NCBI GenBank assembly: GCA_963735115.1
Contig: CAVTJR010000003.1
Coordinates: 1,528,884-1,592,883, forward strand
Direction: 5' to 3'
Source of the DNA: an uncultured Actinomycetota bacterium
GTDB taxonomy: Bacteria; Actinomycetota; Acidimicrobiia; Acidimicrobiales; Bog-793
Length of the DNA: 64,000 nt
Made by a program: the position numbers and the translations under genes. Below, one piece after another: positions 7,520 through 41,389 of the stretch (positions are counted from its first letter, which is position 1; the number at the start of each line of letters is the position of its first letter). The notes below the pieces were generated by a model that saw only the letters and a list, made by a program, of their open reading frames with translations, made no database searches and had not been told where the DNA came from.

Positions 7520-7533
7520 GAGTCGTTTGACCC
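7520..7533 (+). promoter_or_regulatory. DevR/DosR-like box
   Basis: GAGTCGTTTGACCC(TA), followed 23 nt later by CATGCT (7557-7562). Confidence 0.55.
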
Positions 7534-7609
7534 TAGCGGTGCAGTTGCTGTCAACCCATGCTGATGTGAGCCGGGAAATGCCGCGTGCCCGGCGGGAAGG
7601 TGCCTTCCG

Positions 7610-8239
7610 ATGGTGAAGATCGCCACCTGCGACGGTGCACCGGGTCTTGAGGACCCTCTCTTGCCCCAGCCGGAAGGCAGCGTGCGCCTCGACGAGCACA
7701 CCCTCTGCATCGGCGCCGCCGTGACTCTCCAGGAGCTCGTCGACGACGAGCGCGTACCGGCCGTCATCCGCCACGCCGCACGGCGAGATCAGCCGCGGGC
7801 GGTGCGCACGCTCGCGACCGTGGGCGACTGTGTGAGTGCGGCCGACTCCGACAGCGAGCTGCTCTCGACTCTGCTCGCCTACGACGCCACCGTGACCGTC
7901 TACGACCGGCACCGCTCGATGACGATGCCGCTGGCGCGGGCCTTGAGCGGACACGCCAGCCTCATCCGATGCCTGGTTACGGCGCTCGTGATCGAAACCG
8001 ACGGCGTCGCCTTCGCTGCCAGAGTGGGGCGCGCTCCGGACGAGCGCCCCGTCGTGGCGGCTGTCGCTCGTCGGAAGATGAACGGCGAGTTGCGCGTGGC
8101 GCTCTCCGGCGTCGCCACGTTCCCCGTCGTGGCAGCGAAAACCGACGTAGTCGACCCGCCCGGGGACGTCACGGCGTCGAACGAGTACCGGCGCGTGCTG
8201 GCGACCACGGTGATGATCCGGGCCCTTGAAGGCGTCTGA
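7610..8239 (+). CDS. Molybdenum hydroxylase FAD-binding subunit homolog (YgfM/CoxM-like), N-terminally short
   Basis: IGAAVTLQEL, VRTLATVG, RVALSGVA, DPPGDVTASNEYRRVLA. It lacks the usual N-terminal PxSLxEA/AGGT segment. Confidence 0.7.
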   Translation: MVKIATCDGAPGLEDPLLPQPEGSVRLDEHTLCIGAAVTLQELVDDERVPAVIRHAARRDQPRAVRTLATVGDCVSAADSDSELLSTLLAYDATVTVYDRHRSMTMPLARALSGHASLIRCLVTALVIETDGVAFAARVGRAPDERPVVAAVARRKMNGELRVALSGVATFPVVAAKTDVVDPPGDVTASNEYRRVLATTVMIRALEGV

Positions 8240-8250
8240 CACGAGCAAGC

Positions 8251-9255
8251 TCAGCTAGCGGCCTGCGGGGCTCGATGAAATGCCTCCTCGTTGACCAAGG
8301 TGGGCGGGCGCCGCCCCCCGAGGGCCGCGAGGATGTTGTCGACCGCCAGCATTCCCATCGCCAGGCGCGTGTCGACGGTGGCACTTCCGAGATGAGGGCA
8401 GAGCACGACCCTCGGCTGCCCGAGCAGCCGAGGTGACACCTCCGGCTCCCGCTCGAACACGTCGAGTCCGGCAGCGAAGATCCTTCCTCGCTCGAGAGCC
8501 TCGGCGAGCGCCTCCTCGTCCACGACCGGACCGCGGGAGGTGTTGACGAGCACGGCCGTCGGCTTCATCGTGGCGAGGCGGGCGCCCGTGATGAGATGCC
8601 GGGTCTCCTCGGTCAGATTGACGTGGAGACTGACGAAATCAGCGACGGCGAGCAGCTCATCGAGCGTCATCGACTCGGCACCATCGGCGCCACGGCCGGA
8701 TGCCGGCGTGCTCGGGGAGTGGGCGACGTACACGACACGCATCCCGAAACCCGTCGCCCGCCGCGCCACCGCCCGCCCGATCCGCCCGAACCCGATGATG
8801 CCGAGCGTGCGCCCGTAGACGTCGCGCCCGAGCATCGTCTCGGGTCCCCAGGCCCATGGCTGGCCGGAGCGGAGGAGACGATCTCCCTCGGCAACCCTGC
8901 GGGCTGCCGCCATCAGGAGCGCCCAGGCCATGTCGGCCGTGGCCTCGGTCAGCACGTCCGGCGTGTTCGTCACCATGACCGACCGAGCGGTGCAGGCATC
9001 GACGTCGACGTTGTCGACCCCGACGGCATAATTGGCAACGACACGAAGCTGGTTCCCTGCCGCCTCGAGCAGCTCGACGTCGACCCGCTCGGTCAGCAAG
9101 GTGACGATGCCCCGCTTGCCCCTCGCATCGCGGAGAAGGACGTCGCGCGGTATGGCCGCCTCGCCATGCCAGCAGGACAGCTCGCACTCGGCAGCGAGTC
9201 GATCCATGACGGCGGCCGGTAGCCTCCTTGTCAGGAGCACTGGCTCGCGGGGCAC
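8251..9255 (-). CDS. D-isomer 2-hydroxyacid dehydrogenase (glyoxylate/hydroxypyruvate reductase type)
   Basis: ANYAVGVDNVD, NTPDVLTEATAD, GFGRIG, NTSRGPVVDE, GLDVFERE, PHLGSAT. Confidence 0.93.
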   Translation of the reverse strand: MPREPVLLTRRLPAAVMDRLAAECELSCWHGEAAIPRDVLLRDARGKRGIVTLLTERVDVELLEAAGNQLRVVANYAVGVDNVDVDACTARSVMVTNTPDVLTEATADMAWALLMAAARRVAEGDRLLRSGQPWAWGPETMLGRDVYGRTLGIIGFGRIGRAVARRATGFGMRVVYVAHSPSTPASGRGADGAESMTLDELLAVADFVSLHVNLTEETRHLITGARLATMKPTAVLVNTSRGPVVDEEALAEALERGRIFAAGLDVFEREPEVSPRLLGQPRVVLCPHLGSATVDTRLAMGMLAVDNILAALGGRRPPTLVNEEAFHRAPQAAS

Positions 9256-9363
9256 TCACGCGAACCTACAACGGCAGAAGGGGGACCATGAGTCTTCGTG
9301 GGCACTCGTCGGTACAGCTCGGGACGTGCGCGGCGAGGCGGCGCCCCTGGCCAGGTCGACTTT

Positions 9364-9377
9364 GGGCCGAAGGACCC
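9364..9377 (+). promoter_or_regulatory. DevR/DosR-like box upstream of the ade-xdh operon
   Basis: GGGCCGAAGGACCC(TA), followed 23 nt later by CAGGCT (9401-9406). A weaker copy TGACCGAAGGTTCA at 9547-9560 has CACTTT 23 nt later. Confidence 0.7.
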
Positions 9378-9612: not shown

Positions 9613-11334
9613 ATGCCCCGTCGGGCAACACCGGAGCTTCTCGCCGTAGCTCGGGGTGACGCGCCAGCCGATCTGCTCCTCACGGGCGGGCGTGTCTTCG
9701 TTCCGAGCACGCGCGAGTGGGTACTCACCGACCTGGCCATCTACAAGGGCGTGATTGCCGGGTGGGGACAACGTGAGGCCCTCCAGGTCGTCGACGTCTC
9801 CGGGACGTCGCTGACGCCCGCCTTCATCGACGCCCACATGCACCTCGAGTCCACCAAGCTCTGGGTGGACGAGTTCGTGCGGAGGGTGCTCCCCCACGGC
9901 ACGACCGCCGTGGCGGCCGACCCGCACGAGGTCGCCAACGTCTTCGGCATCCCCGGTGTTGTCGCCTTGGCCGAGGCGGCGGCTGGGCTGCCCTTCACCT
10001 TTGGCATCTGCGCCTCGAGCTGCGTGCCGGCGTCACATTTCGAGAGCCCGGGCGCCGAGCTCGGTCCGGGCGACCTCGCCTCCTTGCTGGACGACCACGG
10101 AGCGATCGGAGTGGCCGAGGTGATGAACTTCCCCGGCGTGGTCAATGGCGACCCCGAGGTGCTGGCCAAGATCGCCGCCGCTGGCAACCGTCGCGTCGAT
10201 GGACACGCTCCCGGTCTGTGTGGTCGCCAGCTCGACGCCTATCTGGCTGCGGGCATCGAGTCGGATCACGAGTGCACGGAGCTCGCCGAGGCCGAGGAGA
10301 AACGTCGCAAGGCCATGTGGATCTTCATCCGCGAAGGTTCGGCGTCGCGCAACCTCAGAGCTCTGATTCCGACCGTGATCCGGCACGGCACGGAGCGCGT
10401 TGCCCTCTGCACCGATGACCGCGAGCCGGACACGCTCCTTCGAGCCGGACACGTGAACGACTGCGTGCGCCTGGCGGTGTCGTGCGGCGTCCCGCTGGAA
10501 GACGCCCTCGTGCTCGCCACGAGCAACCCGGCCGATTACCACCACTTCGACCATCTCGGCTGGCTGGCACCCGGTTACCAGGCCGATGTGCTCTGCTTCG
10601 AGGACCTGGCCGGAGTCGTGCCCGCACGCGTCTGGCAGGCGGGCCGCCTCGTGGCCGCCGACGGTGCCGTCGTCGACGGGGCCGTTCCTTCCCGGCCGGC
10701 GCCCGACTTCATGCGCGCCTCGGTCCATCTCGATCCTCCACCGACGGCGGCGGATCTGGACCGCCGCCCACCCGAAGGTGGGCTGGCGCGTGTCATCGGG
10801 ATCGAGGAGCACTCGCTCACGACCCGCCAGCTCATCCTCGACGTCACGGACCCGTCGGTGGAGGTCTCCCGCATCGGGGTCGTGGAGCGGCACCGCCGCA
10901 CCGGTCGTGTCGGTCTCGGCTACGTCCACGGTTTCGGTCTCGCTCGCGGTGCCATCGCCTCGACGGTGGCGCATGACGCCCACAACTGCATGGTCGTGGG
11001 CGCCATCGACGCCACCGGTCCGCCCGACATGGCGGTCGCCGTCGCCAGGCTGGCGGAGATCGGTGGAGGCCAGGTGGCCGTTCTCGACGGCCAAGTGCTC
11101 GCCGAGGTCCCGCTCCCGATCGGTGGCCTCATGAGCGACCTCGACGCAACCACGGTCGCCGTCGAGGTGGAGCGGCTGGCCGAGACGGCCTCGAAGGCGC
11201 TCGGCATCAACATCGCCGCGCCCTTCATGCAACTCAGCTTCCTCGGGCTGTCGGTTCTGCCCGAGCTGAGGATCACCGATCGCGGCATCGTCGATGTGAC
11301 GACCTTCTCTCTGGTCGACGCGGCGGCAGGCTGA
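9613..11334 (+). CDS. ade: Adenine deaminase (AdeC-type, binuclear)
   Basis: FIDAHMHLES, DPHEVANV, AEVMNFPGV, DGHAP, SDHE, REGS, CTDD, STVAHDAHN; AGGAGG RBS. Confidence 0.95.
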   Translation: MPRRATPELLAVARGDAPADLLLTGGRVFVPSTREWVLTDLAIYKGVIAGWGQREALQVVDVSGTSLTPAFIDAHMHLESTKLWVDEFVRRVLPHGTTAVAADPHEVANVFGIPGVVALAEAAAGLPFTFGICASSCVPASHFESPGAELGPGDLASLLDDHGAIGVAEVMNFPGVVNGDPEVLAKIAAAGNRRVDGHAPGLCGRQLDAYLAAGIESDHECTELAEAEEKRRKAMWIFIREGSASRNLRALIPTVIRHGTERVALCTDDREPDTLLRAGHVNDCVRLAVSCGVPLEDALVLATSNPADYHHFDHLGWLAPGYQADVLCFEDLAGVVPARVWQAGRLVAADGAVVDGAVPSRPAPDFMRASVHLDPPPTAADLDRRPPEGGLARVIGIEEHSLTTRQLILDVTDPSVEVSRIGVVERHRRTGRVGLGYVHGFGLARGAIASTVAHDAHNCMVVGAIDATGPPDMAVAVARLAEIGGGQVAVLDGQVLAEVPLPIGGLMSDLDATTVAVEVERLAETASKALGINIAAPFMQLSFLGLSVLPELRITDRGIVDVTTFSLVDAAAG

Positions 11335-11337
11335 TCC

Positions 11338-12219
11338 GTGGCGGTCCTTGTGCCTCGTTCGCTAGACGAGGCATTCGCCATGCTCGAGCGGTCCCCCGAG
11401 GCCGAGCTGCTGGCAGGCGGCACGGACTTCATGGTGGAGGTGAACGCCGGCCTCCGGCGACCCTCCGCCGTGCTCTGTCTTGGACGCATACCCGAGATCG
11501 CCGGCTGGCGACGGGAGGACGGGCACGTGGTGCTCGGCGCCGGTCTGACCTACACCGAGATGATGGAGCCGGAGCTGGCCGGTCTCGTACCCGGGCTCGC
11601 CCGCGCCGCACGGACCGTCGGCTCGCCTCAGATCCGCAACGCCGGCACCGTCGGCGGCAACCTCGGCACCGCCTCCCCGGCCGGTGACTCGCTGCCGTTG
11701 CTGGCCGCCCTCGAGGCCACCGTCGTCGTCGGCCATCTCGCAGGCACGAGGCGCACGCTTTCCTTGAGCCAGCTCCTGACCGGCCCGAAGAGGACGTCAC
11801 TCGAGCCGGGCGAGATCATCCTCGAGGTGCGAGTGCCCGCCAATTTCGGCACGCAGGAGTTCTTGAAGGTAGGCACGAGAAACGCCATGGTCATCGCCGT
11901 CGCCAGCGTGGCGGTCGTCGTCGACTGGGTCGGCCACGGTGTGCGGATCGCCCTCGGTTCCGCTGGACCGGTTGTGATCCGGGCGACCGACGCCGAGGAG
12001 CTGGCGGAGTCGAGAATCGACTGGGAGGAGCGACGCCTCGCAGCCGGCGAGGACGACCTGAGCGATTTCGTCGACCTTGTTCGGGCTGCGGCGCGCCCGA
12101 TCGACGACCACCGCTCGACCGCCCAGTACCGCCGGCATGCCGTCGGGGTATGCGCCGAGCGCGCCCTGCGCCGGGCATTCCAGGGCGATGATCGCAAGGA
12201 AGAGCCATGGAGCAGCTGA
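11338..12219 (+). CDS. pucC: Xanthine dehydrogenase FAD-binding subunit
   Basis: PRSLDEA, LAGGTDFMVEVN, VGSPQIRNAGTVGGNLGTASPAGD, KVGTRNAMVIA, PIDDHRSTAQYR. Confidence 0.9.
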   Translation: MAVLVPRSLDEAFAMLERSPEAELLAGGTDFMVEVNAGLRRPSAVLCLGRIPEIAGWRREDGHVVLGAGLTYTEMMEPELAGLVPGLARAARTVGSPQIRNAGTVGGNLGTASPAGDSLPLLAALEATVVVGHLAGTRRTLSLSQLLTGPKRTSLEPGEIILEVRVPANFGTQEFLKVGTRNAMVIAVASVAVVVDWVGHGVRIALGSAGPVVIRATDAEELAESRIDWEERRLAAGEDDLSDFVDLVRAAARPIDDHRSTAQYRRHAVGVCAERALRRAFQGDDRKEEPWSS

Positions 12220-12707
12220 GCACTGAGGGATCCCTCCTCAGCTACACGCTTCGCGTGAACGGCCGCGACCGGCCGGTCAGCGATGCGCTCATCGAAGAGA
12301 ACCTCCTCTACGTCTTGCGGGAGCGGCTCGGCCTTCGCGGGTCGAAGAACGCCTGCGAGCAGGGCGAGTGCGGGGCGTGCTCGGTGATCCTCGACGGCAG
12401 GCTGGAGTGCGCCTGCACGGTGCTCGCCGCCAGCGCCGTCGGTCGAGAGGTCGTCACGGTGGAGGGTCTCACGCCTGACGGCGACGGGCTCTCGGACCTG
12501 CAGGAAGCCTTCCTCGCCGAGGGGGCCGTCCAGTGCGGCTTTTGCACTCCGGGACTTGTCGTGAGCGTGCACGACCTCCTTTCGCGCAACCCTCACCCGA
12601 CCGAACTCGAGATTCGCGAGGCCATCTCCGGCAACCTCTGCCGCTGCACCGGCTACGGCCGCATACTTGCGGCTGTGAAGGTGGCCGAGGAGATGCACCA
12701 GCCATGA
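12207..12707 (+). CDS. pucE: Xanthine dehydrogenase [2Fe-2S] subunit
   Basis: KNACEQGECGACSV, QCGFCTPG, GNLCRCTGY. Confidence 0.92.
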   Translation: MEQLSTEGSLLSYTLRVNGRDRPVSDALIEENLLYVLRERLGLRGSKNACEQGECGACSVILDGRLECACTVLAASAVGREVVTVEGLTPDGDGLSDLQEAFLAEGAVQCGFCTPGLVVSVHDLLSRNPHPTELEIREAISGNLCRCTGYGRILAAVKVAEEMHQP

Positions 12708-15064
12708 CCACCCTCGACACGCTCGCCGAAGCCGAGACGACCGATCGCACGGCGCAGGGCCTCGGAACGAGCGCCCGCCGGCCGGACGGGCGACCCAAGG
12801 TCCGGGGGCAGTTCGCCTTCTCGTCCGATCTCGAGGCGAAGGACATGCTCTGGGGCCAGCTGCTGCGTTCTCCCCACCCGTCGGCGACCATCCGCCACAT
12901 CGACGTGTCGGGCGCGTGGCGTATCCCCGGAGTCGTGTCCGTCCTCACTGCGGACGACGTGCCCGGCCGCAGCAGCTATGGACTCGACTACCCCGACCAA
13001 CCGGTCTTCGCCTCAGACGTCGCGCGCTACGCCGGAGAGCCCGTGGCGGCGGTGGCGGCTGACCACCCCGTGACGGCGCGACGTGCCGCCGAGGCCATCG
13101 TCGTCGACTACGAGGTGCGCGAGCCGCTCACCGACTCCGAGGCGGCCCTCACGGCCGAGCCGATCCACCCGCTCGGCAACGAGCTCTACCGTCAGACGAT
13201 CCGCCGGGGTGACCCTGCCGCCACTGGCGTCGTCTCGGTCGAGGGCCACTACGAGACCGGCATGCAAGACCAGGCCTTCATGGGGCCTGAATCGGGCCTG
13301 GCCGTTCCGGCGGCCGATGGCGGCGTCGACCTGTACATCGCCACACAGTGGCTGCACGTCGACCAGGACCAGATCGCCGCCTGCCTCGGCTTGCCCCTCG
13401 ACCTCGTGCGCGTTCACCTCGCCGGTGTCGGCGGGGCCTTCGGCGCCCGTGAGGACCTGAGCATGCAGGTGCAGCTCTGCCTGCTGGCGTTGCGCTCGGG
13501 CCGGCCGGTGAAGATCGTCTACTCGCGGGAGGAGTCCTTCCACGGCCATGTCCATCGGCATCCAGCGCGAATGTGGTACCGGCACACGGCCGATGCCACC
13601 GGCCGACTCGTAAGTGTCGAAGCCCGTATCCTCTTCGACGGCGGCGCCTACCTCTCGTCGTCAACGGCCGTGACGCTGAACGCCGCCTGCTTCGCCAACG
13701 GCCCCTACAAGGTGCCCAACGCCTTCGTCGACTGCACGGCGGTGCGCACGAACAACCCTCCATGCGGCGCCATGCGCGGCTTCGGCGCGGTCCAGGTGTG
13801 CTTCGCCCACGAGGCCCAGATGGACAAGCTCGCCGCTGCCCTTTCGATCGACCCAGTCGAACTGCGACTCTTGAACGCCTATGCGCCGGGAGACGAACTC
13901 ATCATCGGACAGGTGCTGACGGGGACGGCGCCGGTCGCCGAAGTCATCCGGGCGTGCGCGGCCGCCCCGCTGCCTCCCGGAAGTCCGGACACGGTGCCCG
14001 AGCTCGCCCTTCCCGGGGGTGCCGGCCGGACGGCCGAACGGCGGCGGGTGCGACGCGGGGTGGGTTTCGCTGTCGGGTTCAAGAACCTCATGTTCTCCGC
14101 TGGCTTCGACGATTACTCGACGGCGCGTTGCCGCCTCGAGGACGGTCAGGTGACGATCACGACCGCCGCTGTCGAGGTGGGACAGGGCCTCGTCACACTG
14201 ATACAGCAGATCGCCCGTGATGTGCTCGGAGTCGACGAGGTCGCCCTCGGAGAAGCTGCGACGGTTGGCATCGGCTCGGCAGGCTCCACCTCGGCGAGCC
14301 GCCAGAGCTGGATGACGGGGGGCGCGGTCGACAGCGCCTGCAGGACGGTCCGCGAGCGACTCCTCTCCTCCATCGCCCAGCGCTTCGAGGTGCCGCGTGC
14401 CGGTCTCGAGCTCGCCTCCGGCCGGGTCGTCTCCGCCGACGGTTCGTTCAACGTCTCCCTGTCCGAGGCTGCCGCCGGAGAGGTCCTCGAGGAGACGGCC
14501 GTCTTCCGCCACCCTGGGACAGCTGAGCTCGACGAGAACGGCCAGGGCGACGCCCATGTCTCGTTCGCTTTCGCCGCTCATCGGGCCGTCGTCGACGTCG
14601 ACCTCGACCTCGGTCTCGTCAAGGTCGTCGAAGTTGCCACTGTCCAGGACGTCGGTCGCGTCCTCAACCCCGTGCAGCTCCTCGGCCAGCTCGAGGGCGG
14701 CATCTCCCAGGGCGTGGGTTTCGCCGTGATGGAAGAGATCGTCCTCGACAAGGGGAAGGTGCGCAACCCTTCGTTCACCGACTACATCATCCCGACGGCG
14801 CTCGATATGCCACCGGTGAGAGTCGAGGCCCTCATCGAGCAGCCCGAGCCGGGCTCGCCTCTCGGTGCCAAGGGCGCCGGCGAGCCGCCGTCGATCTCGT
14901 CCACCGCCGCCGTCGTGGCGGCCATCCGCAACGCCACGGGTCTCGAGCTGGCACGAACCCCGGTGCGGCCGCAGGACATCGCCCTCGCCCTCGCCGGGCA
15001 ACCGTCCGAAGGGGCCGGCGAGGCCCCCGCCACCCCCTCGCCCGCAAAGGAGGCCATGCCATGA
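12704..15064 (+). CDS. pucD: Xanthine dehydrogenase molybdenum-binding subunit
   Basis: ATGA-coupled to the 2Fe-2S gene. [50 protein letters not shown]. Confidence 0.92.
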
Positions 15065-16065
15065 CAACGCCCGTCGCTGTCTACCTGCAGGACGCCCATC
15101 CCATCCGTCAGGGGATGGAGATCGCCAAGTACGCCGAGTCGAAGGGCTTCCACGCCGTCTGGCAAGCCGAGAGCCGCCTCGTGAGGGAGGCGACTGTGCC
15201 GATGGCGGCGTTTCTGTCCGTCACCGAGCGGATCAAGGTCGGCTCCGGCGTGGTCAACAACTGGACCCGCAACCCGGCCCTCCTCGCCTCGACGTTCTCC
15301 ACCCTCGATGACCTCGCCCCCGGGCGCGTCATCCTCGGGATCGGGGCCTGGTGGGAACCACTTGCCAGCAAGGTCGGCATCAAGCGGGAGAAGCCGCTGC
15401 GCGCCATGCGCGAGACCGTGGAGGCCGTCCGCGCCCTGCTCACCGACAAGAACGTCACCTACGAGGGAGAGTTCGTCCACCTCGACGGTGTCGAGCTCGA
15501 TTACGTCTACCAGGAGCGGCGAGCAAAGGACGTGCCCATCTACATCGGCGCCACGGGGATGCAGATGATGGAGCTCGCCGGCGAGATCGGCGACGGTGTC
15601 GTGCTCAACTACCTCGTCTCGCCCGCCTACAACGACCGAGCCCTCGAGCACCTCGAGGTGGGTGCGCAGCGGGCAGGGCGCTCGGCCAGCGACATCGACA
15701 GGCCGCAGCTCGTCGTCTGCTCGCTCGACGAGGACCGCGAGGCGGCCCTCGATGCGGCCCGCATGCTCGTGACGCAATACCTCGGCCAGCAACCCCACAT
15801 CATGAAGGCCTCGGGCGTGCCCCAGTCGCTCCTCGACAAGATCGGCGAGGTGCTGACGTGGCCGGCGACCCACGAGCAGGTGGAGGCCGCCTCGAAACTC
15901 GTCCCGGACGAGATCGTGCAGATGCTGACGGCCTCGGGAACCGCCTCGGAGTGCCGGGCGCAGGTGGCCGAGTACGTGAGGCGGGGTTGCACCTGCCCGG
16001 TGCTCTACCCGCTCGGCCGGGATGTGCACGCCATGATCGACGCCTTCGCGGACTGGACCGCCTGA
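15061..16065 (+). CDS. Luciferase-like (LLM) oxidoreductase, Mer-like, probably F420-dependent
   Basis: ATGA overlap with the pucD stop. [17 protein letters not shown]...[23 protein letters not shown]...LAGEIGDG. Confidence 0.85.
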
Positions 16066-17891: not shown

Positions 17892-17895
17892 GGGG

Positions 17896-32105: not shown

Positions 32106-33407
32106 TCAGGGCCAGAGCCGGCGCGCCCGACGGGCGAGCTCGCCCCGGGCGGCGGCGAGCTCGAGACCTACGAGCTCCCCGTCGCTGACGACGAGCTCAC
32201 CGCCCACGAGGAGATGGCGCACACGCCGGTCCGGGCCGAGCACGAGGCCGGCGATCGGGTCGGGCACGTCGCCGAGGTCGTCGCCCGGCCAGATGGCGAT
32301 GTCGGCCGGCGACCCGGGCTCCAAGCGACCGAGCTCGCCTCGGCCGAGGCACCGTGCCCCGCCGGAGGTCGCCAGCCCGAGCGCTTCTGCCGGCGAGAAG
32401 GCGCTGGCGTGACCATCTCGTAACCTCGCCAGGTAGAGGGCTTGCCGCATCTCGGGCTGCAGAACGCCGGCCTCGTTCGATGCGGCGCCGTCGACACCGA
32501 GGCCGACGGGGGCGCCGGCGTCGACGAGCTGGCGGACCGGGCAGATACCCGAACCCAGACGGCCGTTCGAGCTCGGGCAGTGGGCGACGCCGGCGCCGGC
32601 AGCACCGAGGCGGGCGACCTCGCTCGGATCGAGGTGGATGGCATGGGCGAACCAGACGTCGGGGCCGAGCCAGCCGAGGCCCTCGACGTAGTCGAGCGGC
32701 CGGCAGCCGAAGCGCGCCAGGCTGTCGCGTTCCTCGTCCAACGTCTCTGCGAGGTGCGTGTGCAGGCGGAGCCCGAGCCTGCGGGCGAGATCGGCTGACT
32801 CGACCATCAGCTCCTTGCTCGTCGAGAAGGGACTGCAAGGGGCGACGACCACACTCACCCGGCTGCCGTCGTGCAGTCGCGCCGCTACGGCCTCGGTGGA
32901 GGCGAGGATGACCTCGACGTCCTCGACGATGTCGTCCGGCGGCAGCCCTCCAGCGCTCTCCCCGAGGTCCATGGAACCGCGAGAGAGGTGGAGGCGGACA
33001 CCGACGGTGCGGGCGGCAGAGGCGATGGCGTCGAAAACGCTGTCGTCACCGTGGGGGACGACGTAGTGATGGTCGGCCACCGTCGTGGCGCCGCTGCGAG
33101 CGAGCTCGGCCAGGCCGACAAGGGCAGCGGCGCCGACGTCGTCGCTCGACAGCTGGTTCCAGACGGGGTAGAGCTCCTGCAGCCATCCGAAGAGGTCGCA
33201 GCTCGTGGCACGCCCCCGCGTCATCCACTGGTAGAGGTGATGGTGCGTGTTGACGAGCCCGGCCGTCACGATGTCGCCGTCGCAGCGCAGCTCCCGGTCG
33301 CCCGGTCTCGCTTCGACAGAACCGATCTCGGTGATGAGCCCGTCCTCGACAGCGACGTCTGCGGGGAAGCGGGCGCCCCGCAGCACGAGGCGCGATTCCG
33401 TTGACAT
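32106..33407 (-). CDS. 8-oxoguanine deaminase / AtzB-like amidohydrolase
   Basis: GLVNTHHHLYQWMTRG, DHHY, APCSPFS, HTHLAET, HCPSSNGRLGSG, GVDGAASNE. Confidence 0.88.
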   Translation of the reverse strand: MSTESRLVLRGARFPADVAVEDGLITEIGSVEARPGDRELRCDGDIVTAGLVNTHHHLYQWMTRGRATSCDLFGWLQELYPVWNQLSSDDVGAAALVGLAELARSGATTVADHHYVVPHGDDSVFDAIASAARTVGVRLHLSRGSMDLGESAGGLPPDDIVEDVEVILASTEAVAARLHDGSRVSVVVAPCSPFSTSKELMVESADLARRLGLRLHTHLAETLDEERDSLARFGCRPLDYVEGLGWLGPDVWFAHAIHLDPSEVARLGAAGAGVAHCPSSNGRLGSGICPVRQLVDAGAPVGLGVDGAASNEAGVLQPEMRQALYLARLRDGHASAFSPAEALGLATSGGARCLGRGELGRLEPGSPADIAIWPGDDLGDVPDPIAGLVLGPDRRVRHLLVGGELVVSDGELVGLELAAARGELARRARRLWP

Positions 33408-33427
33408 GTGGACCTCCGGGTGCTCGA

Positions 33428-34779
33428 TCATCGACGGCCCCCCGTGAAGAGCACGGCGACGCTCTCGCCCGGCCCGACGACGCCCTGCTCACGCAAGGCC
33501 ACGAGACCGGCGAGTCCGGCTGACCCGGTCGGGTCGACCTGGATGCCCGTTGTTTCGAGGGCGAGGGCATTCGCCTTCTCCAGCTCTTCCTCGCCGACTA
33601 CGACGGGCCGACCCCCGGTGACGAGCATCGCCTCGACGACGGCCAACCAGTCGTAGGTTTCGTCGTCGAGAATGCCGTGGGCGATGCTGTGCGGCGTCGT
33701 CTCCCAAGGCCACATGAACTCGGACCGGTGCTGGGCGGCCTGGCGGAGAGCCCGGTGGATCGGGTCAGGACCGCTCTGGCCGTCAAGGAGGGCCGCCACG
33801 CGGTCGAAGGCGCGCTTGAGCGGCCAAGCGCTCTCGGTCTGGACGGTGTGGAAGCGCGGGGGGCGCTCGAGGAGACCGAAGGTGACCGCTTCGCCGAAGG
33901 CGGCGGCGACAGCGCTGGCGAGTGCCCCTCCACCGACCTGGACGACGACGTGATCGAGAGGAGCTCCGGTGGCCGCCAGGTGGGCCACGATCTCGTAGCC
34001 GAGCGTCTGGCCGCCTTCGATGGCGAGGCCGTTCTCGTTGCCCTGGCAGGTGAACGGCAGAGCTCCTTCAGCGATGGCCGCCCGCATGCGGTGGTAGGTG
34101 GGATCGCCGTTCACTCCGGCTTGGCGGGCGCACACGGTGATGCGAGCCCCGAGGGAGGAGAGCCGCGCGACGACGGCCGGGTCGGCGTCGGTGGGCACGA
34201 ACACGAGCAGCTGCCGCCCGCCTGCCGCCGCCACGACCGCCGCAGCCAAGGCGGCGTTCCCGCAGCTGGCGATCGCCAGCGGGCGTCGCTCGCTCGCATC
34301 GATCAGGCCAAGCTGTTCGGCCACCTCGAGGTGGAGGAGCAAGCCGAAGAGGTGGCGTCCCTTGTGAGAGCGGGCGACATTGTGGGTCTCGTCCTTCACG
34401 AACACGGGACCGAGGACACCAGCACCTTCACCGAGACGCCCCTCGAAGGTCAGCGGCGTCGTGACGAACCCGCTGCCGTCGACGTCTGCCACGGCGGCGT
34501 CGAGCCGCCGCACGAGAGCGACGAACTGCCCGTCGCCGAGACCGCCGGCGACGGCGAGGTGCTGGGCGTGCAGCAGCGATCGGAACCGCACGAACGGGTT
34601 CTGCTCGCCCTCGTCGCCCGCAGGGAAGGTGACGGCGTCCGCATCGAGCACCCTGCGAAGGACGTGGTCGACACCATCGCCGGCGCGCGGGCAGGAGAAC
34701 GGGTATGGCTCGAACGGCTCGAGGACCGTACCGCACCCGCGGCAGACCATCAGGCTCGGCAAGGGCGTGTGCCGCAGGT

Positions 34780-34783
<4 letters not shown>
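33428..34783 (-). CDS. Fold-type II PLP enzyme, threonine synthase-like, with N-terminal Cys motif
   Basis: CRGC...[15 protein letters not shown] (PLP Lys), [40 protein letters not shown]. Confidence 0.85.
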
Positions 34784-36282
<1,499 letters not shown>

Positions 36283-36561: not shown

Positions 36562-37920
36562 TCAGATGACGGCTTCGTCGAGCATGGCGTCGGCGACCTT
36601 CACGAATCCGGCGATGTTCGCCCCCACGACGTAGTCCCCGTCCTCGCCATACCGCTCGGCTGCTTCCCGGCAGTGCGAGTGGATCGCCCCCATGATGGAC
36701 CGCAAACGTTCGTCCACCTGCTCGCGTGTCCACTGCAGATGGAGGCTGTCCTGCGCCATCTCCAGCCCGGAGACGGTGACACCGCCTGCGTTTGCTGCTT
36801 TGCCCGGTCCGAAGAGGACCCCGGCGGTACGGAACTGCGAGGCGCCGTCCGGCATCGTGGGCATGTTGGCCCCTTCGGTGACGGCGATCACGCCGTTGCC
36901 CACGAGGTTGGCCGCATCCTTGCCGTTGATCTCGTTCTGGGTGGCGCACGGGAAGGCACAGTCGGCCGGGACCGCCCAGAGCGGGTTGCAGTCCCCGTGA
37001 GTGGCGGCGGTGAAGCTTGCCGTCGGGAACTTCGTGGCGTACTCCGAGATGCGCCCGCGGCGAACGTTCTTCAAATCCATGACCCAGCAGAGCTTCTCTT
37101 CATCGATGCCGTCTGGATCGTGCACGAAGCCACCCGAGTCGGACAGCGTCACCGGTTTCGCACCGATGGCGATGAGCTTCTCGGCGGCGTATTGGGCGAC
37201 ATTGCCGCTGCCGGAAATGAGACACGTCTTGGCCTCGAGGCTCTGCGAGCGGGTGGCGAGCATCTCGGCGGCGAAGTAGACAGCGCCGTAACCGGTCGCC
37301 TCCGGACGGACGAGGGAACCGCCCCAGCCGTAGCCCTTGCCGGTCAAGGTGCCGCTGAACTCGTTGGTGATGCGCTTGTACTGGCCGAACAGGTAACCGA
37401 TCTCGCGGCCGCCCACACCGATGTCACCCGCAGGAACATCGGTGAACTGACCGATGTGGCGGTACAGCTCACTCATGAACGCCTGGCAGAACCGCCGCAC
37501 CTCGGCGTCACTCCTTCCCTTCGGGTCGAAGTCGGAGCCACCCTTGGCGCCACCCATCGGCAGCGTCGTGAGCGAGTTCTTCAACACCTGCTCGAAGGCG
37601 AGGAACTTCAGCAGCCCGGCGTAGACGCTCGGATGGAAGCGAAGCCCGCCCTTGTAGGGCCCGATGGCACTGTTCATTTGGACGCGGAAGCCGCGATTGA
37701 TCTGTATCTCCCCCTCGTCGTCCACCCAGGGGACGCGGAAGATGATGGTGCGCTCCGGCTCCGCCATGCGTTCGAGGATCTTGGCCGCCTCGTACTCGCG
37801 GTGCTCGGCAAGCACCGGCGCGAGCGAGGTGTAGACCTCCCCAACGGCCTCGAGAAACTCCGGCTCACCAGGGTTCTGGCGCGCCACGTCGTTCAGCACG
37901 CGTTCGATGTAGTTCGACAT
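36562..37920 (-). CDS. gdhA: NADP-specific glutamate dehydrogenase
   Basis: GPYKGGLRFHP, MGGAKGGSDFDPKG, DVPAGDIGVG, RPEATGYG, SGSGNVA, EGANMP, KAANAGGV. Confidence 0.97.
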   Translation of the reverse strand: MSNYIERVLNDVARQNPGEPEFLEAVGEVYTSLAPVLAEHREYEAAKILERMAEPERTIIFRVPWVDDEGEIQINRGFRVQMNSAIGPYKGGLRFHPSVYAGLLKFLAFEQVLKNSLTTLPMGGAKGGSDFDPKGRSDAEVRRFCQAFMSELYRHIGQFTDVPAGDIGVGGREIGYLFGQYKRITNEFSGTLTGKGYGWGGSLVRPEATGYGAVYFAAEMLATRSQSLEAKTCLISGSGNVAQYAAEKLIAIGAKPVTLSDSGGFVHDPDGIDEEKLCWVMDLKNVRRGRISEYATKFPTASFTAATHGDCNPLWAVPADCAFPCATQNEINGKDAANLVGNGVIAVTEGANMPTMPDGASQFRTAGVLFGPGKAANAGGVTVSGLEMAQDSLHLQWTREQVDERLRSIMGAIHSHCREAAERYGEDGDYVVGANIAGFVKVADAMLDEAVI

Positions 37921-38025
37921 TGGCGTCGTGACTCCTTCTTGTCTCGCTTCGTTGCGATGTCGGCCAGCTGAATCAGGCACAGACGCTCGTGAACAAATGA
38001 TGCGCCCGGCTCGACGAGCGAACTA

Positions 38026-38039: not shown

Positions 38040-38223
38040 CCGCCTGCGCTTCAAGCGTCCCTTTACCTGTAGGAACCTCTGCGTGCGCCGCCATGGCAAC
38101 GCATCGCGGCCCGAGGCGCATCCCCTCCGCGCCCTGCGGCGCTAGCCTCCGGTCCGGCGTCCGCGTTCATGAGGTGAGCCGTGCCGCAGCCATCGACGAC
38201 GACAGCCCGATGACACCTTGGCC

Positions 38224-39351
38224 ATGAGCGCAGACGATCGCGCCGGACCTCGCCCCTTCGGTGTGCCCACCCTCGAGGACCTCGGGGACCTGAGCGGACG
38301 CTCGGTGCTCGTGCGGGGGGACCTCGACATCGCCGAGCTCGAGCCCGGTTCGCTGGCTCGCGAGCGACGCCTCGGTGTTCTCCTGCCGACCCTGCGATGG
38401 TTGCTCGACCGCGGTGCCCGCGTGTCGGTCTGCGGCCATGTCGGGAGCCTCGTTGGTGAAGCTGACGAGGCGTCCTTCTTGGGAATCCGTCGGGAAGTGG
38501 AGGATGCCTGTCCCGGAGTGAGCGTCCTCCCGAACCTGGCGGGCGAGCAGGAGCGCTTGGGGGACCGACAGCTGGCGGTGGAGCTTGCGCGGGGGCAGGA
38601 CTTCTATGTGAACGAGGCCTTTCAATGGTGCTGGATGTCGCTCGCCTCCATCGTGGGGCCTCCCGCCCTGCTTCCGTCAGCTGCTGGGCTGCGGCTGGCG
38701 GCCGACCTCGTGCTGCTCGAGCCTTTGATCCTCCACCCCCCGCGACCGTTCGTGGCCGTGTTCGGAAGCGATCAGTCGCTTTCACGGCTTCCCGGCTTGC
38801 GCGGGCTGATACTTCGCGCTGATGCGACCCTCGTCGGTGGGGCAATGGCCCTGCCCTTCCTGCAGGCGATCGGTGTGCAAAGCGCCCCAAAGCCCGAGAC
38901 CGAGCTGCTGCGGGAGTGCCGAGCGTGCTTCGGGCTCGCCCGGGAGATCCAGCACAACGTTCGCCTTCCCTCGGACCTCGTCTGGGAACAGCCGGACGGG
39001 ACGGTGGTGCTCGCCCCCTCCGCCTCATCGCTCGACGGCTCCGTCTCCGACATCGGGTCGACGACGCGCCTTCGCTACGCCGAGGTGCTGCGGGGAGCGG
39101 GCAGTGTCCTGTGGACGGGCGCCCTCGGCCGAGCGGAGGACACACGCTTCGCCCAGGGTACGCGAGCGGTGGCCGCCGGCCTGCCGCCGCAGGGCCACGT
39201 AGTACTCGGTGGGGACGCTGCGCTGGCCGCCCTCGAAGACCTCACGAGTGCCGCCACCGGAGTGCTCAGTGCCACCGACAGCGCCGTCACGTTGTTGAAG
39301 GACGGGGATCTACCGGGCTTGGCGGCGCTCCGGGGGAGCCGGCGGGGCTGA
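38224..39351 (+). CDS. Phosphoglycerate kinase-like protein with degenerate active site
   Basis: PGK scaffold motifs VLVRGDLD, YVNEAF, AAGL, PPRPFVAVFG, VGGAMA, DIG, GGD, LPGLAAL; substrate and catalytic motifs are replaced. Confidence 0.75.
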   Translation: MSADDRAGPRPFGVPTLEDLGDLSGRSVLVRGDLDIAELEPGSLARERRLGVLLPTLRWLLDRGARVSVCGHVGSLVGEADEASFLGIRREVEDACPGVSVLPNLAGEQERLGDRQLAVELARGQDFYVNEAFQWCWMSLASIVGPPALLPSAAGLRLAADLVLLEPLILHPPRPFVAVFGSDQSLSRLPGLRGLILRADATLVGGAMALPFLQAIGVQSAPKPETELLRECRACFGLAREIQHNVRLPSDLVWEQPDGTVVLAPSASSLDGSVSDIGSTTRLRYAEVLRGAGSVLWTGALGRAEDTRFAQGTRAVAAGLPPQGHVVLGGDAALAALEDLTSAATGVLSATDSAVTLLKDGDLPGLAALRGSRRG

Positions 39352-39401
39352 GCCACAGCAACCCGCCGCAGTCCTCCTCCAGCTCGCGAGCAAGGCGCCC
39401 G

Positions 39402-40949
39402 TTACGGCAGAGGCGCCACCGGCTCAGCCGAGGTGAGCGGGCCGACCGACGTGAGAGGCGCTACTGGCTCCGACGCCGTGAGCGCCGCTTCCTTGCGGAC
39501 GCTTGTCCTGGACAGGATCCCGTAGGCAACTCCGCCGACGATCATCCCGACGAGCCAGCTGAAGTCCGCTCCATGCGTCCAGTTCGAAAGCGGACCGGTG
39601 TAGGAGGGCACATAGAAGGCGGCATCGATCCACATCATGGCAGCGAACATGCCGAGAGCCAGCGACGAGAGCGCCTTCCAGTTGAAGCCGCCGTCCCGCC
39701 AGTAGAGACCGCCACGCTTCTCAGCCAGCGAAAGGACGTCGTAGCGGCCGCGACGCAGCAGGTAGTCGACGATGAGGACGCCGAACCAGGGCCCCAGCCA
39801 CACGACGATGTAGTCGAGGAAGCCCGACAGGTCCGCGTAGAAGTTGCCCTTGAAGATCACAAGGGCCGTCACCCCGCCGGAGATGACGGTGTCGATGAGC
39901 ACGCAACCCCACCGCTTGAGGGGGATGCCGAGCGCCTGCAGGGTCACGCCGGAGGAGTACATGTCGATCGAGTTGATGGCGAACAGCTGCGGGATCGCCA
40001 GGATCAAGAAGGGCCAGAAGAACCAGCTGGCAAACGACGACGGGACGCCCGTAACGGCAGTGACACTCGGGCTGACGAGGTAGGCAGCCGCTCCGAGGAG
40101 CTCGAGCAGGATCGACGGAATCGCTCCTCCAAGCGTGGCGGCCCAGAAGGTCTTCATCTTGGCTGTGTCCCGCGGAAGGTACCGAGAGTAGTCAGCGGCG
40201 TTCTCGGTCCAGCCGAGCCCGCCGGCGGAGACGATGAGCACGAGCGCCGTCGTCCAGAGCCACCAGGTGGTGTGCTGGTGGAAGGTGCTCAGGTGGGCGT
40301 GCGGAATGACAAGGCATGCCATGACGGCGAAGACGACGATGAACACGAAGGACAGGTAGCGCAGCACCTTGATGATGGTGGCGTGGCCGAGGAACGGAAC
40401 GATGAACTGGATGGCCACCGCGCCGATGATGATGGCGACCTTGGCGCCGGTGTCGACATGGGTTCCCTCCCGCAGGAACATGGCAATGACGACGAGCACG
40501 ATGATGACGATGCCCTCGATCTCGAAGCCGACCTGGGTGATCCAGTTGAAGAGGGAAGGGGCACGGTTGCCGTTGCGACCAAAGGGAGCTCGGCTGACCA
40601 TGAAGGCGGTCGTGCCGGTCTCCGGCCCGGGCAGGCTCGCCCAACCGAGGAAGGCATAGCCGAGGTTGCCCACGAGGATGGCCAGCACGGCCTGCCAGAA
40701 CGACAGCCCGAAGGAGACGATGAGTGCTCCGTAGACGAGGAACTCGACGTTCCAGATCGCCCCCGCCCACATCCAGAACAGCCCGGACGGCTTCATCTTG
40801 CGGTCCGAGTCGGGAATCAACTCGATGCCACGTTGCTCCAGCTTGAAAGCTTCGTAGCTCTCCGACGTCGGGGGGGCATCGAGGTCAACGGCGCCACCTC
40901 GCGCGCCTCCGCCAAAGCCGCCGGTCACAGCGCCTGTCCCATCGGCCAT
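39402..40949 (-). CDS. NCS1 family purine-cytosine permease
   Basis: EQRGIELIP, SRAPFGRNG, WTENAADYSRYLP, NSIDMYSSG, PWFGVLIVDY; about 12 hydrophobic segments. Confidence 0.92.
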   Translation of the reverse strand: MADGTGAVTGGFGGGARGGAVDLDAPPTSESYEAFKLEQRGIELIPDSDRKMKPSGLFWMWAGAIWNVEFLVYGALIVSFGLSFWQAVLAILVGNLGYAFLGWASLPGPETGTTAFMVSRAPFGRNGNRAPSLFNWITQVGFEIEGIVIIVLVVIAMFLREGTHVDTGAKVAIIIGAVAIQFIVPFLGHATIIKVLRYLSFVFIVVFAVMACLVIPHAHLSTFHQHTTWWLWTTALVLIVSAGGLGWTENAADYSRYLPRDTAKMKTFWAATLGGAIPSILLELLGAAAYLVSPSVTAVTGVPSSFASWFFWPFLILAIPQLFAINSIDMYSSGVTLQALGIPLKRWGCVLIDTVISGGVTALVIFKGNFYADLSGFLDYIVVWLGPWFGVLIVDYLLRRGRYDVLSLAEKRGGLYWRDGGFNWKALSSLALGMFAAMMWIDAAFYVPSYTGPLSNWTHGADFSWLVGMIVGGVAYGILSRTSVRKEAALTASEPVAPLTSVGPLTSAEPVAPLP

Positions 40950-41047
40950 CTTCGGACCTCCCTTGTGCCGGAAAGAGAAACCCGCAAGTTCCCCTCGGTG
41001 CGGCTCGTCCGTTAACAAACATGTTCCTTTCGAGGGCGGCTTCTCTA

Positions 41048-41114
41048 GGGTCTTTGTGCCCTACTTCGAGCAGGCAGAGGAGGCGGGGATCATCGATGCA
41101 GGATCGAAAGTCCC
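41048..41114. promoter_or_regulatory. Two DevR/DosR-like boxes in a divergent promoter
   Basis: TA-GGGTCTTTGTGCCC-TA (41048-41061) with minus-strand CATGTT 24 nt away, and GGATCGAAAGTCCC (41101-41114). Confidence 0.7.
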
Positions 41115-41128
41115 TCTAGAGTGACCAC

Positions 41129-41389
41129 GTGGTTGAAGCCATCGTCCTCGTGAATGCGGAGCCCGCCCACTTGGCGAGCCTCGGTCGCCAGCTCGCCGAC
41201 GTGGCGGGAGTCTCGGCCGCCTTCTCGGTTGCGGGTGACGAGGATTTCGTCGCCGTAGTACGTGTCGTCAATCACGAGGAGTTGGCCGAGGTCGTCACGA
41301 CGCGGATCGCCGTCCTCGAGGGCATCACGCGCCTTCGAACACTCATCGCCTTTCGTAGCTACGGCACCGAGGACGAGCGTTACTTCTAG
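41129..41389 (+). CDS. Stand-alone Lrp/AsnC ligand-binding (RAM) domain protein
   Basis: 86 aa; FSVAGDEDFVAVVRV, LEGITRLRTLIAF; no HTH domain. Confidence 0.85.
   Translation: MVEAIVLVNAEPAHLASLGRQLADVAGVSAAFSVAGDEDFVAVVRVVNHEELAEVVTTRIAVLEGITRLRTLIAFRSYGTEDERYF

Follow-up and report, generated by a model that had tools for sequence, protein, structure and literature searches.

According to two reports from 2025 (PMC12507026; 10.1101/2025.04.24.650524), the reductive degradation of urate proceeds through 2,8-dioxopurine and a reduced form of this compound, the ring of which is opened by SsnA before HyuA generates 2,3-diureidopropionate, upon which both ureido groups are lost and the resulting diaminopropionate is converted to pyruvate and ammonia. 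The current study concerns a purine-catabolic island in a 64,000-nucleotide stretch of DNA (the window) from an uncultured actinobacterium, which corresponds to positions 1528884-1592883 of contig C3 in a three-contig genome of 4.42 Mb with a completeness of 91.7% (G000). The island extends from approximately 7.6 to 36.3 kb of the window, with named genes continuing to about 41 kb, and very probably represents a variant of reductive purine degradation (the 2,8-dioxopurine or 'yanthine' pathway). The best explanation of its gene content, to which we assign a probability of about 0.62, is an Acidimicrobiia-type variant of this pathway with steps as proposed below, the complete step-by-step enzyme assignment, as read from sequence, being at most somewhat better than even.

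In Escherichia coli the cluster has the order ygeW-ygeX-ygeY-hyuA-yqeA ... ygfK-ssnA-ygfM-xdhD (PMC12507026). Li et al. (2025) recorded SsnA in Chloroflexota and Actinomycetota, proposed that Glu606 of the molybdenum enzyme XdhD orients urate, described the D-aminoacylase UacY as the replacement of YgeW and YqeA in Clostridioides difficile, and remarked, from gene neighbourhoods and without experiment, that an F420 luciferase-family protein stands in the place of YgfK or UacX in Chloroflexota (PMC12507026). Their neighbourhood analysis took PF00185 membership as sufficient for YgeW and PF00291 membership for YgeX, so that a second transcarbamylase and the pair of PLP (pyridoxal phosphate) enzymes reported here are not distinguished in that description (PMC12507026). 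Liu et al. (2025) reported that no uricolytic cluster in their gut strain library lacks an accompanying selenium cofactor trait and that SelD is needed for the enzymes of Clostridium sporogenes (10.1101/2025.04.24.650524). The two reports disagree as to which of the ureido groups is removed by YgeW (PMC12507026; 10.1101/2025.04.24.650524).

Gene content of the island and comparison with described clusters

Owing to the G+C content of approximately 69%, genes in the window were chosen by third-position GC, and they were named by NCBIfam and Pfam profile searches read against curated family cut-offs. Gene content and co-occurrence are what was observed, and from these we infer all enzyme-substrate assignments. 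The genes proposed for the steps from urate onwards, together with the YgfM-like remnant, are as follows, aa denoting amino acids:

7610-8239, plus strand: g01, YgfM-like FAD-subunit remnant, N-terminally truncated, 209 aa (TIGR03312 65 bits, cut-off 241.5)
15061-16065, plus strand: g07, luciferase-like reductase (LLM), Mer-like (PF00296 242 bits)
16869-17891, minus strand: g09, short SsnA, 340 aa (PRK07203 265 and TIGR03314 249 bits, cut-offs 444 and 455; next family 69)
17896-20571, minus strand: g10, fused 2Fe-2S and molybdopterin hydroxylase, TIGR03311 type (814.6 bits against 830.45)
25910-26863, minus strand: g15, carbamate kinase (CK; PRK12352 390 bits, over 266; TIGR00746 358.0 against 358.25)
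26867-27844, minus strand: g16, short YgeW-related carbamoyltransferase, OTC-family (32% identical to YgeW, E 4e-56)
27849-28802, minus strand: g17, aspartate carbamoyltransferase (ATCase)-like carbamoyltransferase (TIGR00670 248 bits, over 237)
28855-30654, plus strand: g18, D-aminoacylase-like amidohydrolase (UacY-like), start codon uncertain (PF07969 89 bits; PRK09061 177 bits)
30618-32057, minus strand: g19, D-hydantoinase/dihydropyrimidinase, the HyuA equivalent (TIGR02033 491 bits, over 393)
33428-34783, minus strand: g21, Zn-ribbon ThrC-like PLP fold-II enzyme (PF00291 138 bits; PRK08197 91, cut-off 303; thrC 39 against 167)
34780-36282, minus strand: g22, 500-aa CysK-like PLP fold-II enzyme (PF00291 43 bits; cysK 74.6 against 351)

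The plus-strand operon at 9613-16065 comprises the genes of the adenine deaminase Ade, of the xanthine dehydrogenase subunits PucC, PucE and PucD, and g07, the start of which overlaps the PucD stop; minus-strand operons hold g17, g16 and g15, and g22, g21, the 8-oxoguanine-deaminase-like g20 and g19. The gene inventory of an earlier, model-generated reading of the same sequence (the original prediction) was found to be essentially right, with five corrections that concern the molybdenum enzyme, the YgfM-like gene, the length of SsnA, one false open reading frame (ORF) and the YgeW-like gene.

Like the E. coli cluster (PMC12507026), the island encodes an SsnA-like protein (37% identical to residues 56-352 of E. 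coli SsnA), HyuA (43%), carbamate kinase (48% to YqeA, in a single genomic copy) and a YgeW-related enzyme (32%), with a fused FeS/Mo hydroxylase adjoining SsnA and with purine permeases and a purine deaminase nearby. Unlike that cluster, it is without YgfK, YgeY and YgeX, its molybdenum enzyme belongs to another subfamily, its FAD subunit is truncated and its SsnA is shorter; SelD and YqeB over cut-off, and YqeC, are missing here, while an ATCase-like enzyme, an LLM and a PLP enzyme pair are added. By its published description, the clostridial pathway (DOPDH/XdhAC and DOPOR/YgfK in C. sporogenes; UacX/UacY in C. difficile) resembles the island in its fused FeS/Mo hydroxylase, which has no functional FAD subunit, in a UacY-type D-aminoacylase with a homologue in g18, and in deriving ATP via a carbamoyltransferase and carbamate kinase, as would be the case here, but it requires SelD and YqeB/C, which were not found in the present genome, and its reductase is YgfK or the PydA-like UacX and not an LLM. 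The F420 luciferase-family variant, as reported, is matched by a PF00296 protein near SsnA in the place of YgfK/UacX and by the capacity to make F420; it was reported for Chloroflexota, whereas the island lies in a member of the Acidimicrobiia, and neither an ATCase-like enzyme nor a g21/g22 pair is separated there.

The original prediction had pointed to the lack of ygfK, ygeY and ygeX from the window, and this holds for the genome as a whole, in which none was found over cut-off. The best genomic match to YgfK (TIGR03315) reaches 292 bits over model positions 433-936 only (cut-off 835) and is a PRK12771 protein beside the pyruvate:ferredoxin oxidoreductase (PFOR); the best matches to YgeY and YgeX reach 116.6 and 40.2 bits, respectively (cut-offs 321.5 and 274), and tblastn searches with the E. 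coli proteins agree, YgeX yielding no match at E<=1e-5. With regard to selenium, the best genomic SelD match reaches 60.9 bits against a cut-off of 125, YqeB has no match in the genome and YqeC no tblastn match, so that the selenium-dependent molybdenum hydroxylase trait (a TIGR03311 enzyme together with SelD, YqeB and YqeC) was not recovered; judged from these sequences, g10 is probably selenium-independent. The genome encodes CtaD over cut-off (an aa3 oxidase), leaving the proposed operation under low oxygen unsupported: given this oxidase, 'anaerobic' describes the chemistry at most, and not the organism.

Conservation of the island and the proposed reductive steps

Scanning one genome per species, more than 570 stretches were found to encode relatives of the short SsnA, and the neighbourhood survey covered the best 80 of these, within 10 kb of SsnA, many contigs being shorter. 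These 80 relatives are 66-83% identical to g09 from about residue 1-9 to 340 (two end earlier) and derive mostly from metagenome-assembled genomes (MAGs) of Acidimicrobiia, with a few labelled Acidobacteriota, Nitriliruptorales or Egicoccus, thereby substantiating the actinobacterial host that had been suggested from the sequence. The LLM was present in 58 of the 80 loci and g10, directly upstream of SsnA, in 56; PucD was present in 30, g22 in 17, g16 in 11, g17 and CK in 9 each, g19 and g21 in 7 each and g18 in 4, while YgeX-like genes occurred in 16. In the closest relatives (L017-L023) the genes recur in the order Ade-PucCED-LLM / SsnA-g10 / CK-g16-g17 / g20 / g22.

In addition, 201 genomes sampled evenly across the class were examined, with follow-up on the 60 that are SsnA-positive; the sampled genomes are relatives, and the counts are descriptive, with no statistical test applied. 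All 53 genomes with g22 are SsnA-positive, and none of the 141 SsnA-negative genomes carries it; the LLM (E<=1e-90) was detected in 29 of the 201, again exclusively in SsnA-positive genomes (29/29). YgfK was found in 12 of the 60 SsnA-positive genomes (11 over cut-off and adjoining SsnA), the LLM and YgfK counts both being based on only about 10 first-look candidates scored per genome, and YgeY over cut-off in none of the 60. YgeX-like genes (E<=1e-40) were present in 19 of the 201 genomes, including all seven SsnA-positive genomes that lack g22; six genomes carry both g22 and a YgeX-like gene, and no SsnA-positive genome carries neither. The gene combination is thus conserved, as the original prediction had required, with respect to the LLM and g10 at the level of loci and to the LLM and g22 at that of genomes.

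Sequence archives provide a view of the wider occurrence of the island. At least half of the sampled words of window positions 14000-21000 were recovered from 16 runs labelled soil, peat, wetland or metagenome, five of which may represent the source sample, and the 24 listed runs with this stretch come from 13 studies. Short contigs with zero differences over parts of g07-g10, g14-g18 and g20-g22 occur in four metatranscriptomic libraries belonging to three studies, as does a piece of g19 with 11 differences from the window; these contigs give no more than a hint of transcription, with DNA carry-over possible and no silent-stretch control, and uncovered stretches carry no information.

Within the proposed pathway, g07 together with F420H2 would take the place of YgfK and dearomatise 2,8-dioxopurine. 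This role is suggested by the exclusive co-occurrence of the LLM with SsnA, by its near-exclusivity with YgfK and by its operon position. The top NCBIfam matches of g07 are all F420 families, none over cut-off, so the protein is probably F420-dependent, as far as profile matches can indicate; CofD is present (314.8 bits, over a cut-off of 257), from which it follows that the genome can make F420. The features of the F420 luciferase-family variant were all found, namely a PF00296 gene approximately 0.8 kb from SsnA, no PF01180 or YgfK gene in the island, and CofD in the genome. An LLM and a true YgfK occur together in one genome only (G138), and in three loci (L038, L041, L071) a true YgfK follows SsnA and no LLM was seen. 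Loci with neither an LLM nor YgfK after SsnA were also sampled (L046, L039, L042). In L046, a carbon-nitrogen hydrolase (6436-7395) is located upstream of g10 and a 680-aa 4Fe-4S dicluster protein (10777-12819) after SsnA; the two may represent yet another reductase or decarbamoylase variant. The Marinacidobacterales locus L042, with g10 and SsnA and no LLM, carries after its YgeX-like gene, at 12263-13588, a FAD amine-oxidase-like gene and a further amidohydrolase.

The short SsnA would open the ring after this reduction, an assignment based on conserved motifs: g09 retains the HxH, DHHxSP, HNxRSNMNNxVGY and LGTDGIGxDMxEE blocks of E. coli SsnA. The 'SsnA-like' call of the original prediction stands insofar as the best families are SsnA and the motifs are kept, but the protein is a short form that scores below the cut-offs, being 100 aa shorter than its E. 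coli counterpart, lacking the N-terminal 55 or so residues and beginning at the HxH motif. By virtue of falling under the TIGR03314 cut-off, such short SsnA proteins may lie outside the IPR017700 network of Li et al., as that network is described.

The molybdenum enzyme g10 is proposed, from its position and architecture, to remove the 6-oxo group of urate and thereby form 2,8-dioxopurine. It matches the 848-position TIGR03311 model end to end, and its ATG-initiated neighbour g09 starts 4 nt after its stop codon. The earlier designation of this enzyme as XdhD-like is not sustained: it scores 200 bits against the XdhD family TIGR03313 (cut-off 1102), is 25% identical to E. coli XdhD, and a closer XdhD-type paralogue is encoded 820 kb away. 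In the alignment, Glu606 of XdhD is part of the loop LKILGAIGEGK, which is missing from g10 and five of its orthologues as well as from PucD and E. coli XdhA, while a corresponding loop with an LGE motif is present in the distant paralogue and in the XdhD-type enzymes adjoining short SsnA in L030, L038 and L060. As for the 'YgfM-like subunit', its homology is borne out, but g01 is truncated and without the FAD-binding N-terminus: its alignment with a 272-aa paralogue (C3:722230-723048; 42% identity) is confined to residues 91-271 of the latter, no extension or frameshift was found upstream of 7610 in any frame, and it was found in one of the 80 related loci.

The distant paralogue belongs to a locus at C3:722230-735422 (L098, L099) that encodes the full YgfM-like protein, the XdhD-type fused enzyme (TIGR03313 668 bits, under the cut-off of 1102), a flavin reductase, a dihydroorotate dehydrogenase (DHODH)-like PRK07565 protein, PFOR, a GltD-like PRK12771 NAD(P)-binding Fe-S protein and another F420-type LLM. 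The PFOR was called as two overlapping ORFs, possibly through a frameshift or a start-call effect.

Proposed removal of the ureido groups and proposed fate of the C3 unit

In the proposed scheme, the hydantoinase g19 would open the hydantoin to yield 2,3-diureidopropionate, from which g16 and g17 would each phosphorolyse one ureido group, and g15 would convert the carbamoyl phosphate from both groups to ATP, at a yield of up to 2 ATP per purine. In arginine deiminase-type substrate-level phosphorylation, a catabolic carbamoyltransferase and carbamate kinase act together, ureido phosphorolysis yielding carbamoyl phosphate and, in turn, ATP. The island would follow the same chemical logic, with g17, g16 and g15 in one operon, yet it has two different carbamoyltransferases, the proposed substrates of which are 2-/3-ureido derivatives of diaminopropionate and not citrulline. 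The original suggestion of ATP formation through carbamoyl phosphate fits this operon: g16 and g17 occur in the same 18 of the 60 SsnA-positive genomes, mutually adjacent, and all 18 possess carbamate kinase. In loci of other families (L038, L041, L104, L105), g16, g17 and CK cluster with SsnA, YgfK and g22.

Both carbamoyltransferases are extra paralogues, PyrB-like (next to a dihydroorotase-like gene) and ArgF-like genes being present elsewhere in the genome. The 'YgeW-like' label of g16 is justified by its identity to YgeW and by several YgeW-specific motifs, and fails at family level, the protein being without the YgeW insertions and far under the cut-offs for knotted YgeW (176 and 165 bits, cut-offs 453 and 500). 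In g17, the sequence YMEPVVQADYT, invariant in 10 orthologues, stands in place of RIQKER of the PyrB-like copy of the genome, an instance of RxQxER, which we take to be the aspartate side-chain site motif of PyrB; the carbamoyl-phosphate motifs and a HSLPRMDELP block are retained. An assignment as PyrB was rejected on account of this replacement (RIQKER by PVVQADY) and of the failed NF002032 model (218 bits against 263). The altered pocket would suit an N-alpha-carbamoyl amino acid without a beta-carboxylate, and g17 may, by phosphorolysis, stand in for the hydrolase YgeY. The UacY-like g18 may provide a hydrolytic bypass; its orthologues (54-57% identity) adjoin a true YgeY (41-43% identical to that of E. 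coli) in L027, L032, L033 and L059, and the class sample contains paralogues only (35-40%). Urease alpha was not found in the genome (other urea-using enzymes were not searched), which renders urea-releasing chemistry less likely here. A second D-hydantoinase at C1:1521217-1522590 scores above the island copy (TIGR02033 588 bits), lies near XdhC/CoxI-like and CoxLMS-like genes (C1:1521217-1532142) and might serve a pyrimidine or hydantoin route of its own.

The PLP enzymes g22 and g21 are proposed to finish the C3 amino-acid end of the pathway, either replacing diaminopropionate ammonia-lyase or acting alongside it, and their role is the least certain part of the scheme. The most natural chemistry here would be a beta-elimination or beta-replacement on a 3-substituted alanine. 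Assignments as cysteine synthase (g22) and threonine synthase (g21) were rejected, both proteins scoring under the curated cut-offs. A predicted model of g22 (predicted local distance difference test, pLDDT, 86.5) has cysteine synthases as its closest folds at 19-29% identity, and the protein combines a cysteine-synthase-like core and intact PLP motifs with approximately 170 extra residues; no diaminopropionate ammonia-lyase appeared among about 40 listed of at least 500 Foldseek matches to this model. A sequence search of PDB chains with g21 and g22 returned only distant matches of cysteine-, threonine- and serine-racemase-type enzymes. There are at least 8000 homologues of g22, all at E<=1e-10, and the best 120 of these share 62-100% identity with it, in nearly all cases over 70%, and stem from several phyla. 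Beyond generic automatic labels, the family carries no functional name, and in the protein atlas it corresponds to unnamed PALP clusters only.

The partner g21 was found in 36 of the 60 SsnA-positive genomes, all of them g22-positive, and it is always adjacent to g22; genomes without g21 have a more divergent g22 homologue (49-53% identity). In the two g21-less clusters examined (L104, L105), g22 is preceded by another Zn-ribbon ThrC-like PLP enzyme, a PRK08197 member (314.6 bits, over 303) designated the type-B partner, which is 29% identical to g21, and for this reason a module of two PLP enzymes would seem to be a general feature. Regarding the earlier notion that these proteins replace ygeX, two unusual and conserved PLP enzymes are indeed present, but a plain substitution of YgeX by g22 was rejected, given the six genomes with both, in two of which they share one cluster. 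One such cluster (L106, genome G080) combines diaminopropionate ammonia-lyase (NF006058 323 bits, over 276) with HyuA, g22, g21, g10, SsnA and an LLM.

Alternative readings, accessory genes and implications

Several observations weigh against an Acidimicrobiia-type reductive pathway with steps as proposed. SsnA, the LLM, g10 and g16 all score under their curated cut-offs, and the surveyed genomes are kin, so their counts are not independent. The YgfM-like gene of the island is truncated, which bears on the supply of electrons to g10; g10 also lacks the Glu606 loop proposed to orient urate in XdhD, and the genome holds the distant fused XdhD-type enzyme (C3:723045-726008), which is 36% identical to residues 1-955 of E. 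coli XdhD (E 2e-160). Twenty of the 60 SsnA-positive genomes have neither an LLM nor YgfK at the thresholds used, and 42 of the 60 have neither g16/g17 nor YgeY, so that the scheme does not account for ureido removal there. Finally, g22 and g21 occur in L106 in one cluster with a true diaminopropionate ammonia-lyase.

These observations lend themselves to other readings, one of which, though unlikely, is that the distant locus converts urate to 2,8-dioxopurine and perhaps performs the reduction, with g10 being another purine hydroxylase and the LLM acting on another intermediate. The distant enzyme is the nearer of the two to E. coli XdhD (36% against 25%) and keeps the LGE loop, enzymes of its type adjoin short SsnA in L030, L038, L041 and L060, and the DHODH-like and GltD-like proteins resemble building blocks of PydA/UacX and YgfK; the PRK07565 and PRK12771 genes flank PFOR, however, and may be merely its partners, the locus has no SsnA, and its enzyme remains well below the TIGR03313 cut-off. 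By comparison, g10 is the immediate and translationally coupled neighbour of SsnA, as it is beside SsnA in most of the surveyed loci, and its size fits C. sporogenes DOPDH, which, by its published description, is a fused FeS/Mo protein with the Mo domain at 307-839. It is also unlikely, to a slightly greater degree, that the PLP pair is not catabolic but recovers a product of the pathway, for instance by forming another amino acid through beta-replacement on a 3-substituted alanine, with diaminopropionate being handled by a different enzyme. The folds closest to g22 are indeed those of beta-replacement enzymes (cysteine synthase, cystathionine beta-synthase and beta-cyanoalanine synthase), the relatives of g21 are threonine and cysteate synthases, and the co-occurrence in L106 would be accounted for; yet 47 of the 60 SsnA-positive genomes have g22 and no YgeX-like gene (E<=1e-40) and none has neither, so something must dispose of the C3 unit, and g22 is never seen without SsnA in the class sample.

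The least probable reading, which we consider improbable, regards the island as a mosaic of separate nitrogen-catabolic modules without a common pathway: purine oxidation (Ade, PucCED), hydantoin or pyrimidine breakdown (HyuA, D-aminoacylase), arginine/agmatine-type ATP formation from carbamoyl phosphate, and biosynthetic Cys/Thr-like PLP enzymes. Each family has familiar roles elsewhere, g17 and g19 pass the ATCase and dihydropyrimidinase cut-offs, respectively, the hydantoinase is present in 54 of the 60 SsnA-positive genomes and not specific, and g02, g08, g23 and g26 are absent from related loci at survey thresholds. The confinement of g22 and the LLM to SsnA-positive genomes argues against a mosaic, as do the presence of g16, g17 and CK with SsnA, YgfK and g22 in L038, L041, L104 and L105, the housekeeping PyrB-like and ArgF-like genes located elsewhere, and the fact that no uricase for an oxidative route was found in the genome, in a search limited to the cofactor-less family. 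The reductive pathway, with SsnA, g10, the LLM, g16/g17/CK and g22/g21, is preferred. A more far-reaching form of it remains tentative, and on balance doubtful: that environmental Acidimicrobiia, along with some other Actinomycetota and Acidobacteriota, possess a selenium-independent, F420-driven reductive purine pathway which would gain two ATP per purine by means of the short-YgeW/ATCase-like pair and would rely on an obligate two-enzyme PLP module instead of diaminopropionate ammonia-lyase chemistry. One possibility under that form is that the module performs direct beta-elimination or beta-replacement on 3-ureido- or 3-amino-alanine.

The core would be supplied by feeder enzymes and uptake systems, which are encoded as follows:

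9613-11334, plus strand: g03, adenine deaminase Ade (TIGR01178 497 bits, over 472.5)
11338-15064, plus strand: g04-g06, xanthine dehydrogenase PucC (FAD), PucE (2Fe-2S) and PucD (Mo), the PucD start being taken at 12704 (PucD TIGR03196 824 bits, over 783.65)
20767-25696, plus strand: g11-g14, BMP-family ABC transporter with two permeases, binding protein and ATPase (best matches NF047927-NF047930, all below cut-off)
32106-33431, minus strand: g20, 8-oxoguanine-deaminase-like amidohydrolase, co-operonic with g21/g22 (NF006055 541 bits, over 532)
39402-41018, minus strand: g25, NCS1 nucleobase:cation symporter, peripheral (PF02133 167 bits)

Adenine deaminase would convert adenine to hypoxanthine, and Ade, PucCED and g20 would together funnel purines to urate following uptake by the BMP-ABC transporter and the NCS1 permease. 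Among the 80 related loci, g03 is present in 15, g20 in 31, often adjoining the PLP pair, and g25 in two. Orthologues of g11-g14 (49-92% identity) lie beside short SsnA in six loci (L017, L034, L046, L050, L057, L064), with weaker matches (22-49%) in others; nucleosides or purines are the probable substrates of this transporter, judging by its family matches. The genome also encodes a second NCS1 permease (C1:923698-925128; 79% identical to g25), a further XdhB/XdhC/XdhA-like cluster adjoining a UacT/XanQ-like NCS2 permease (C3:158808-166057) and, in all, at least four xanthine-dehydrogenase-family loci. No riboswitch or other RNA family emerged when the window was scanned in full with Rfam at gathering thresholds.

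Genes at the periphery, or without a conserved place beside the core, are the following:

8251-9255, minus strand: g02, glyoxylate/hydroxypyruvate-reductase-like D-2-hydroxyacid dehydrogenase (PRK13243 360 bits, cut-off 455)
16232-16792, plus strand: g08, isochorismatase-family (cysteine) hydrolase (PF00857 133 bits; weak BiuH/RutB matches)
36562-37980, minus strand: g23, NADP-glutamate dehydrogenase (NF006929 720 bits, over 536)
38218-39351, plus strand: PGK-like ORF, the true gene at the site of the false ORF (PF00162 154.8 bits, in two stretches)

At 50% coverage g02 is found in none of the 80 related loci, and at 40% coverage in one (L031); g23 is found in none and is not kept beside the core. 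The cysteine hydrolase g08, which the original prediction had counted among the pathway replacements, is likewise absent from all 80 and is a lineage-specific addition. A minus-strand ORF at 38063-39145, earlier taken as an unknown 360-aa gene, was rejected since it has no family match and is non-coding by codon-position GC; the PGK-like ORF at this site is solitary between the glutamate dehydrogenase and the NCS1 permease, with no gap-pgk-tpi setting. The left edge of the island, directly upstream of g01, is formed by genes for a 947-aa fatty acyl-AMP ligase-like protein (3888-6731, minus strand) and an Hsp20 protein (6842-7318, plus strand). To the right lie a PLP-dependent, diaminobutyrate/aspartate decarboxylase-like protein below the cut-offs (41442-42869, plus strand) and a second F420-type LLM (42895-43947, minus strand; TIGR03559 326 bits against 335), neither of which was seen in related loci.

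As regards novelty, the main thrust of the original prediction, a variant purine pathway with replacements, has held, though it was overstated with respect to novelty, XdhD orthology and anaerobiosis. The pathway cannot be called undescribed, as both the F420 luciferase-family substitute and UacY had been noted in the report of Li et al. 2025 (PMC12507026); a substitution by an LLM was hence already anticipated in print, without experiment, and a full-text literature search returned no paper beyond that of Li et al. with both the intermediate name and F420. What is new, as far as our searches and the published descriptions show, is the LLM in Acidimicrobiia, the apparent independence of selenium, the short SsnA, the g16/g17/CK module and the strict linkage between g22/g21 and the pathway.

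Knowledge of the reductive urate pathway dates only from 2025 and stems from gut bacteria, in which both selenium and YgfK (the PydA-like UacX in C. difficile) are required. The same core logic would here operate in oxidase-bearing soil and peat actinobacteria with another reductant, F420, and apparently without selenium. The island offers candidates for the replacement of YgfK, for the harvesting of both ureido groups as ATP and for the function of the g22 family, and a selenium-free enzyme set could serve engineered uricolytic strains. Given that the short SsnA is present in 60 of the 201 genomes of the class, this variant may be a common environmental purine sink.

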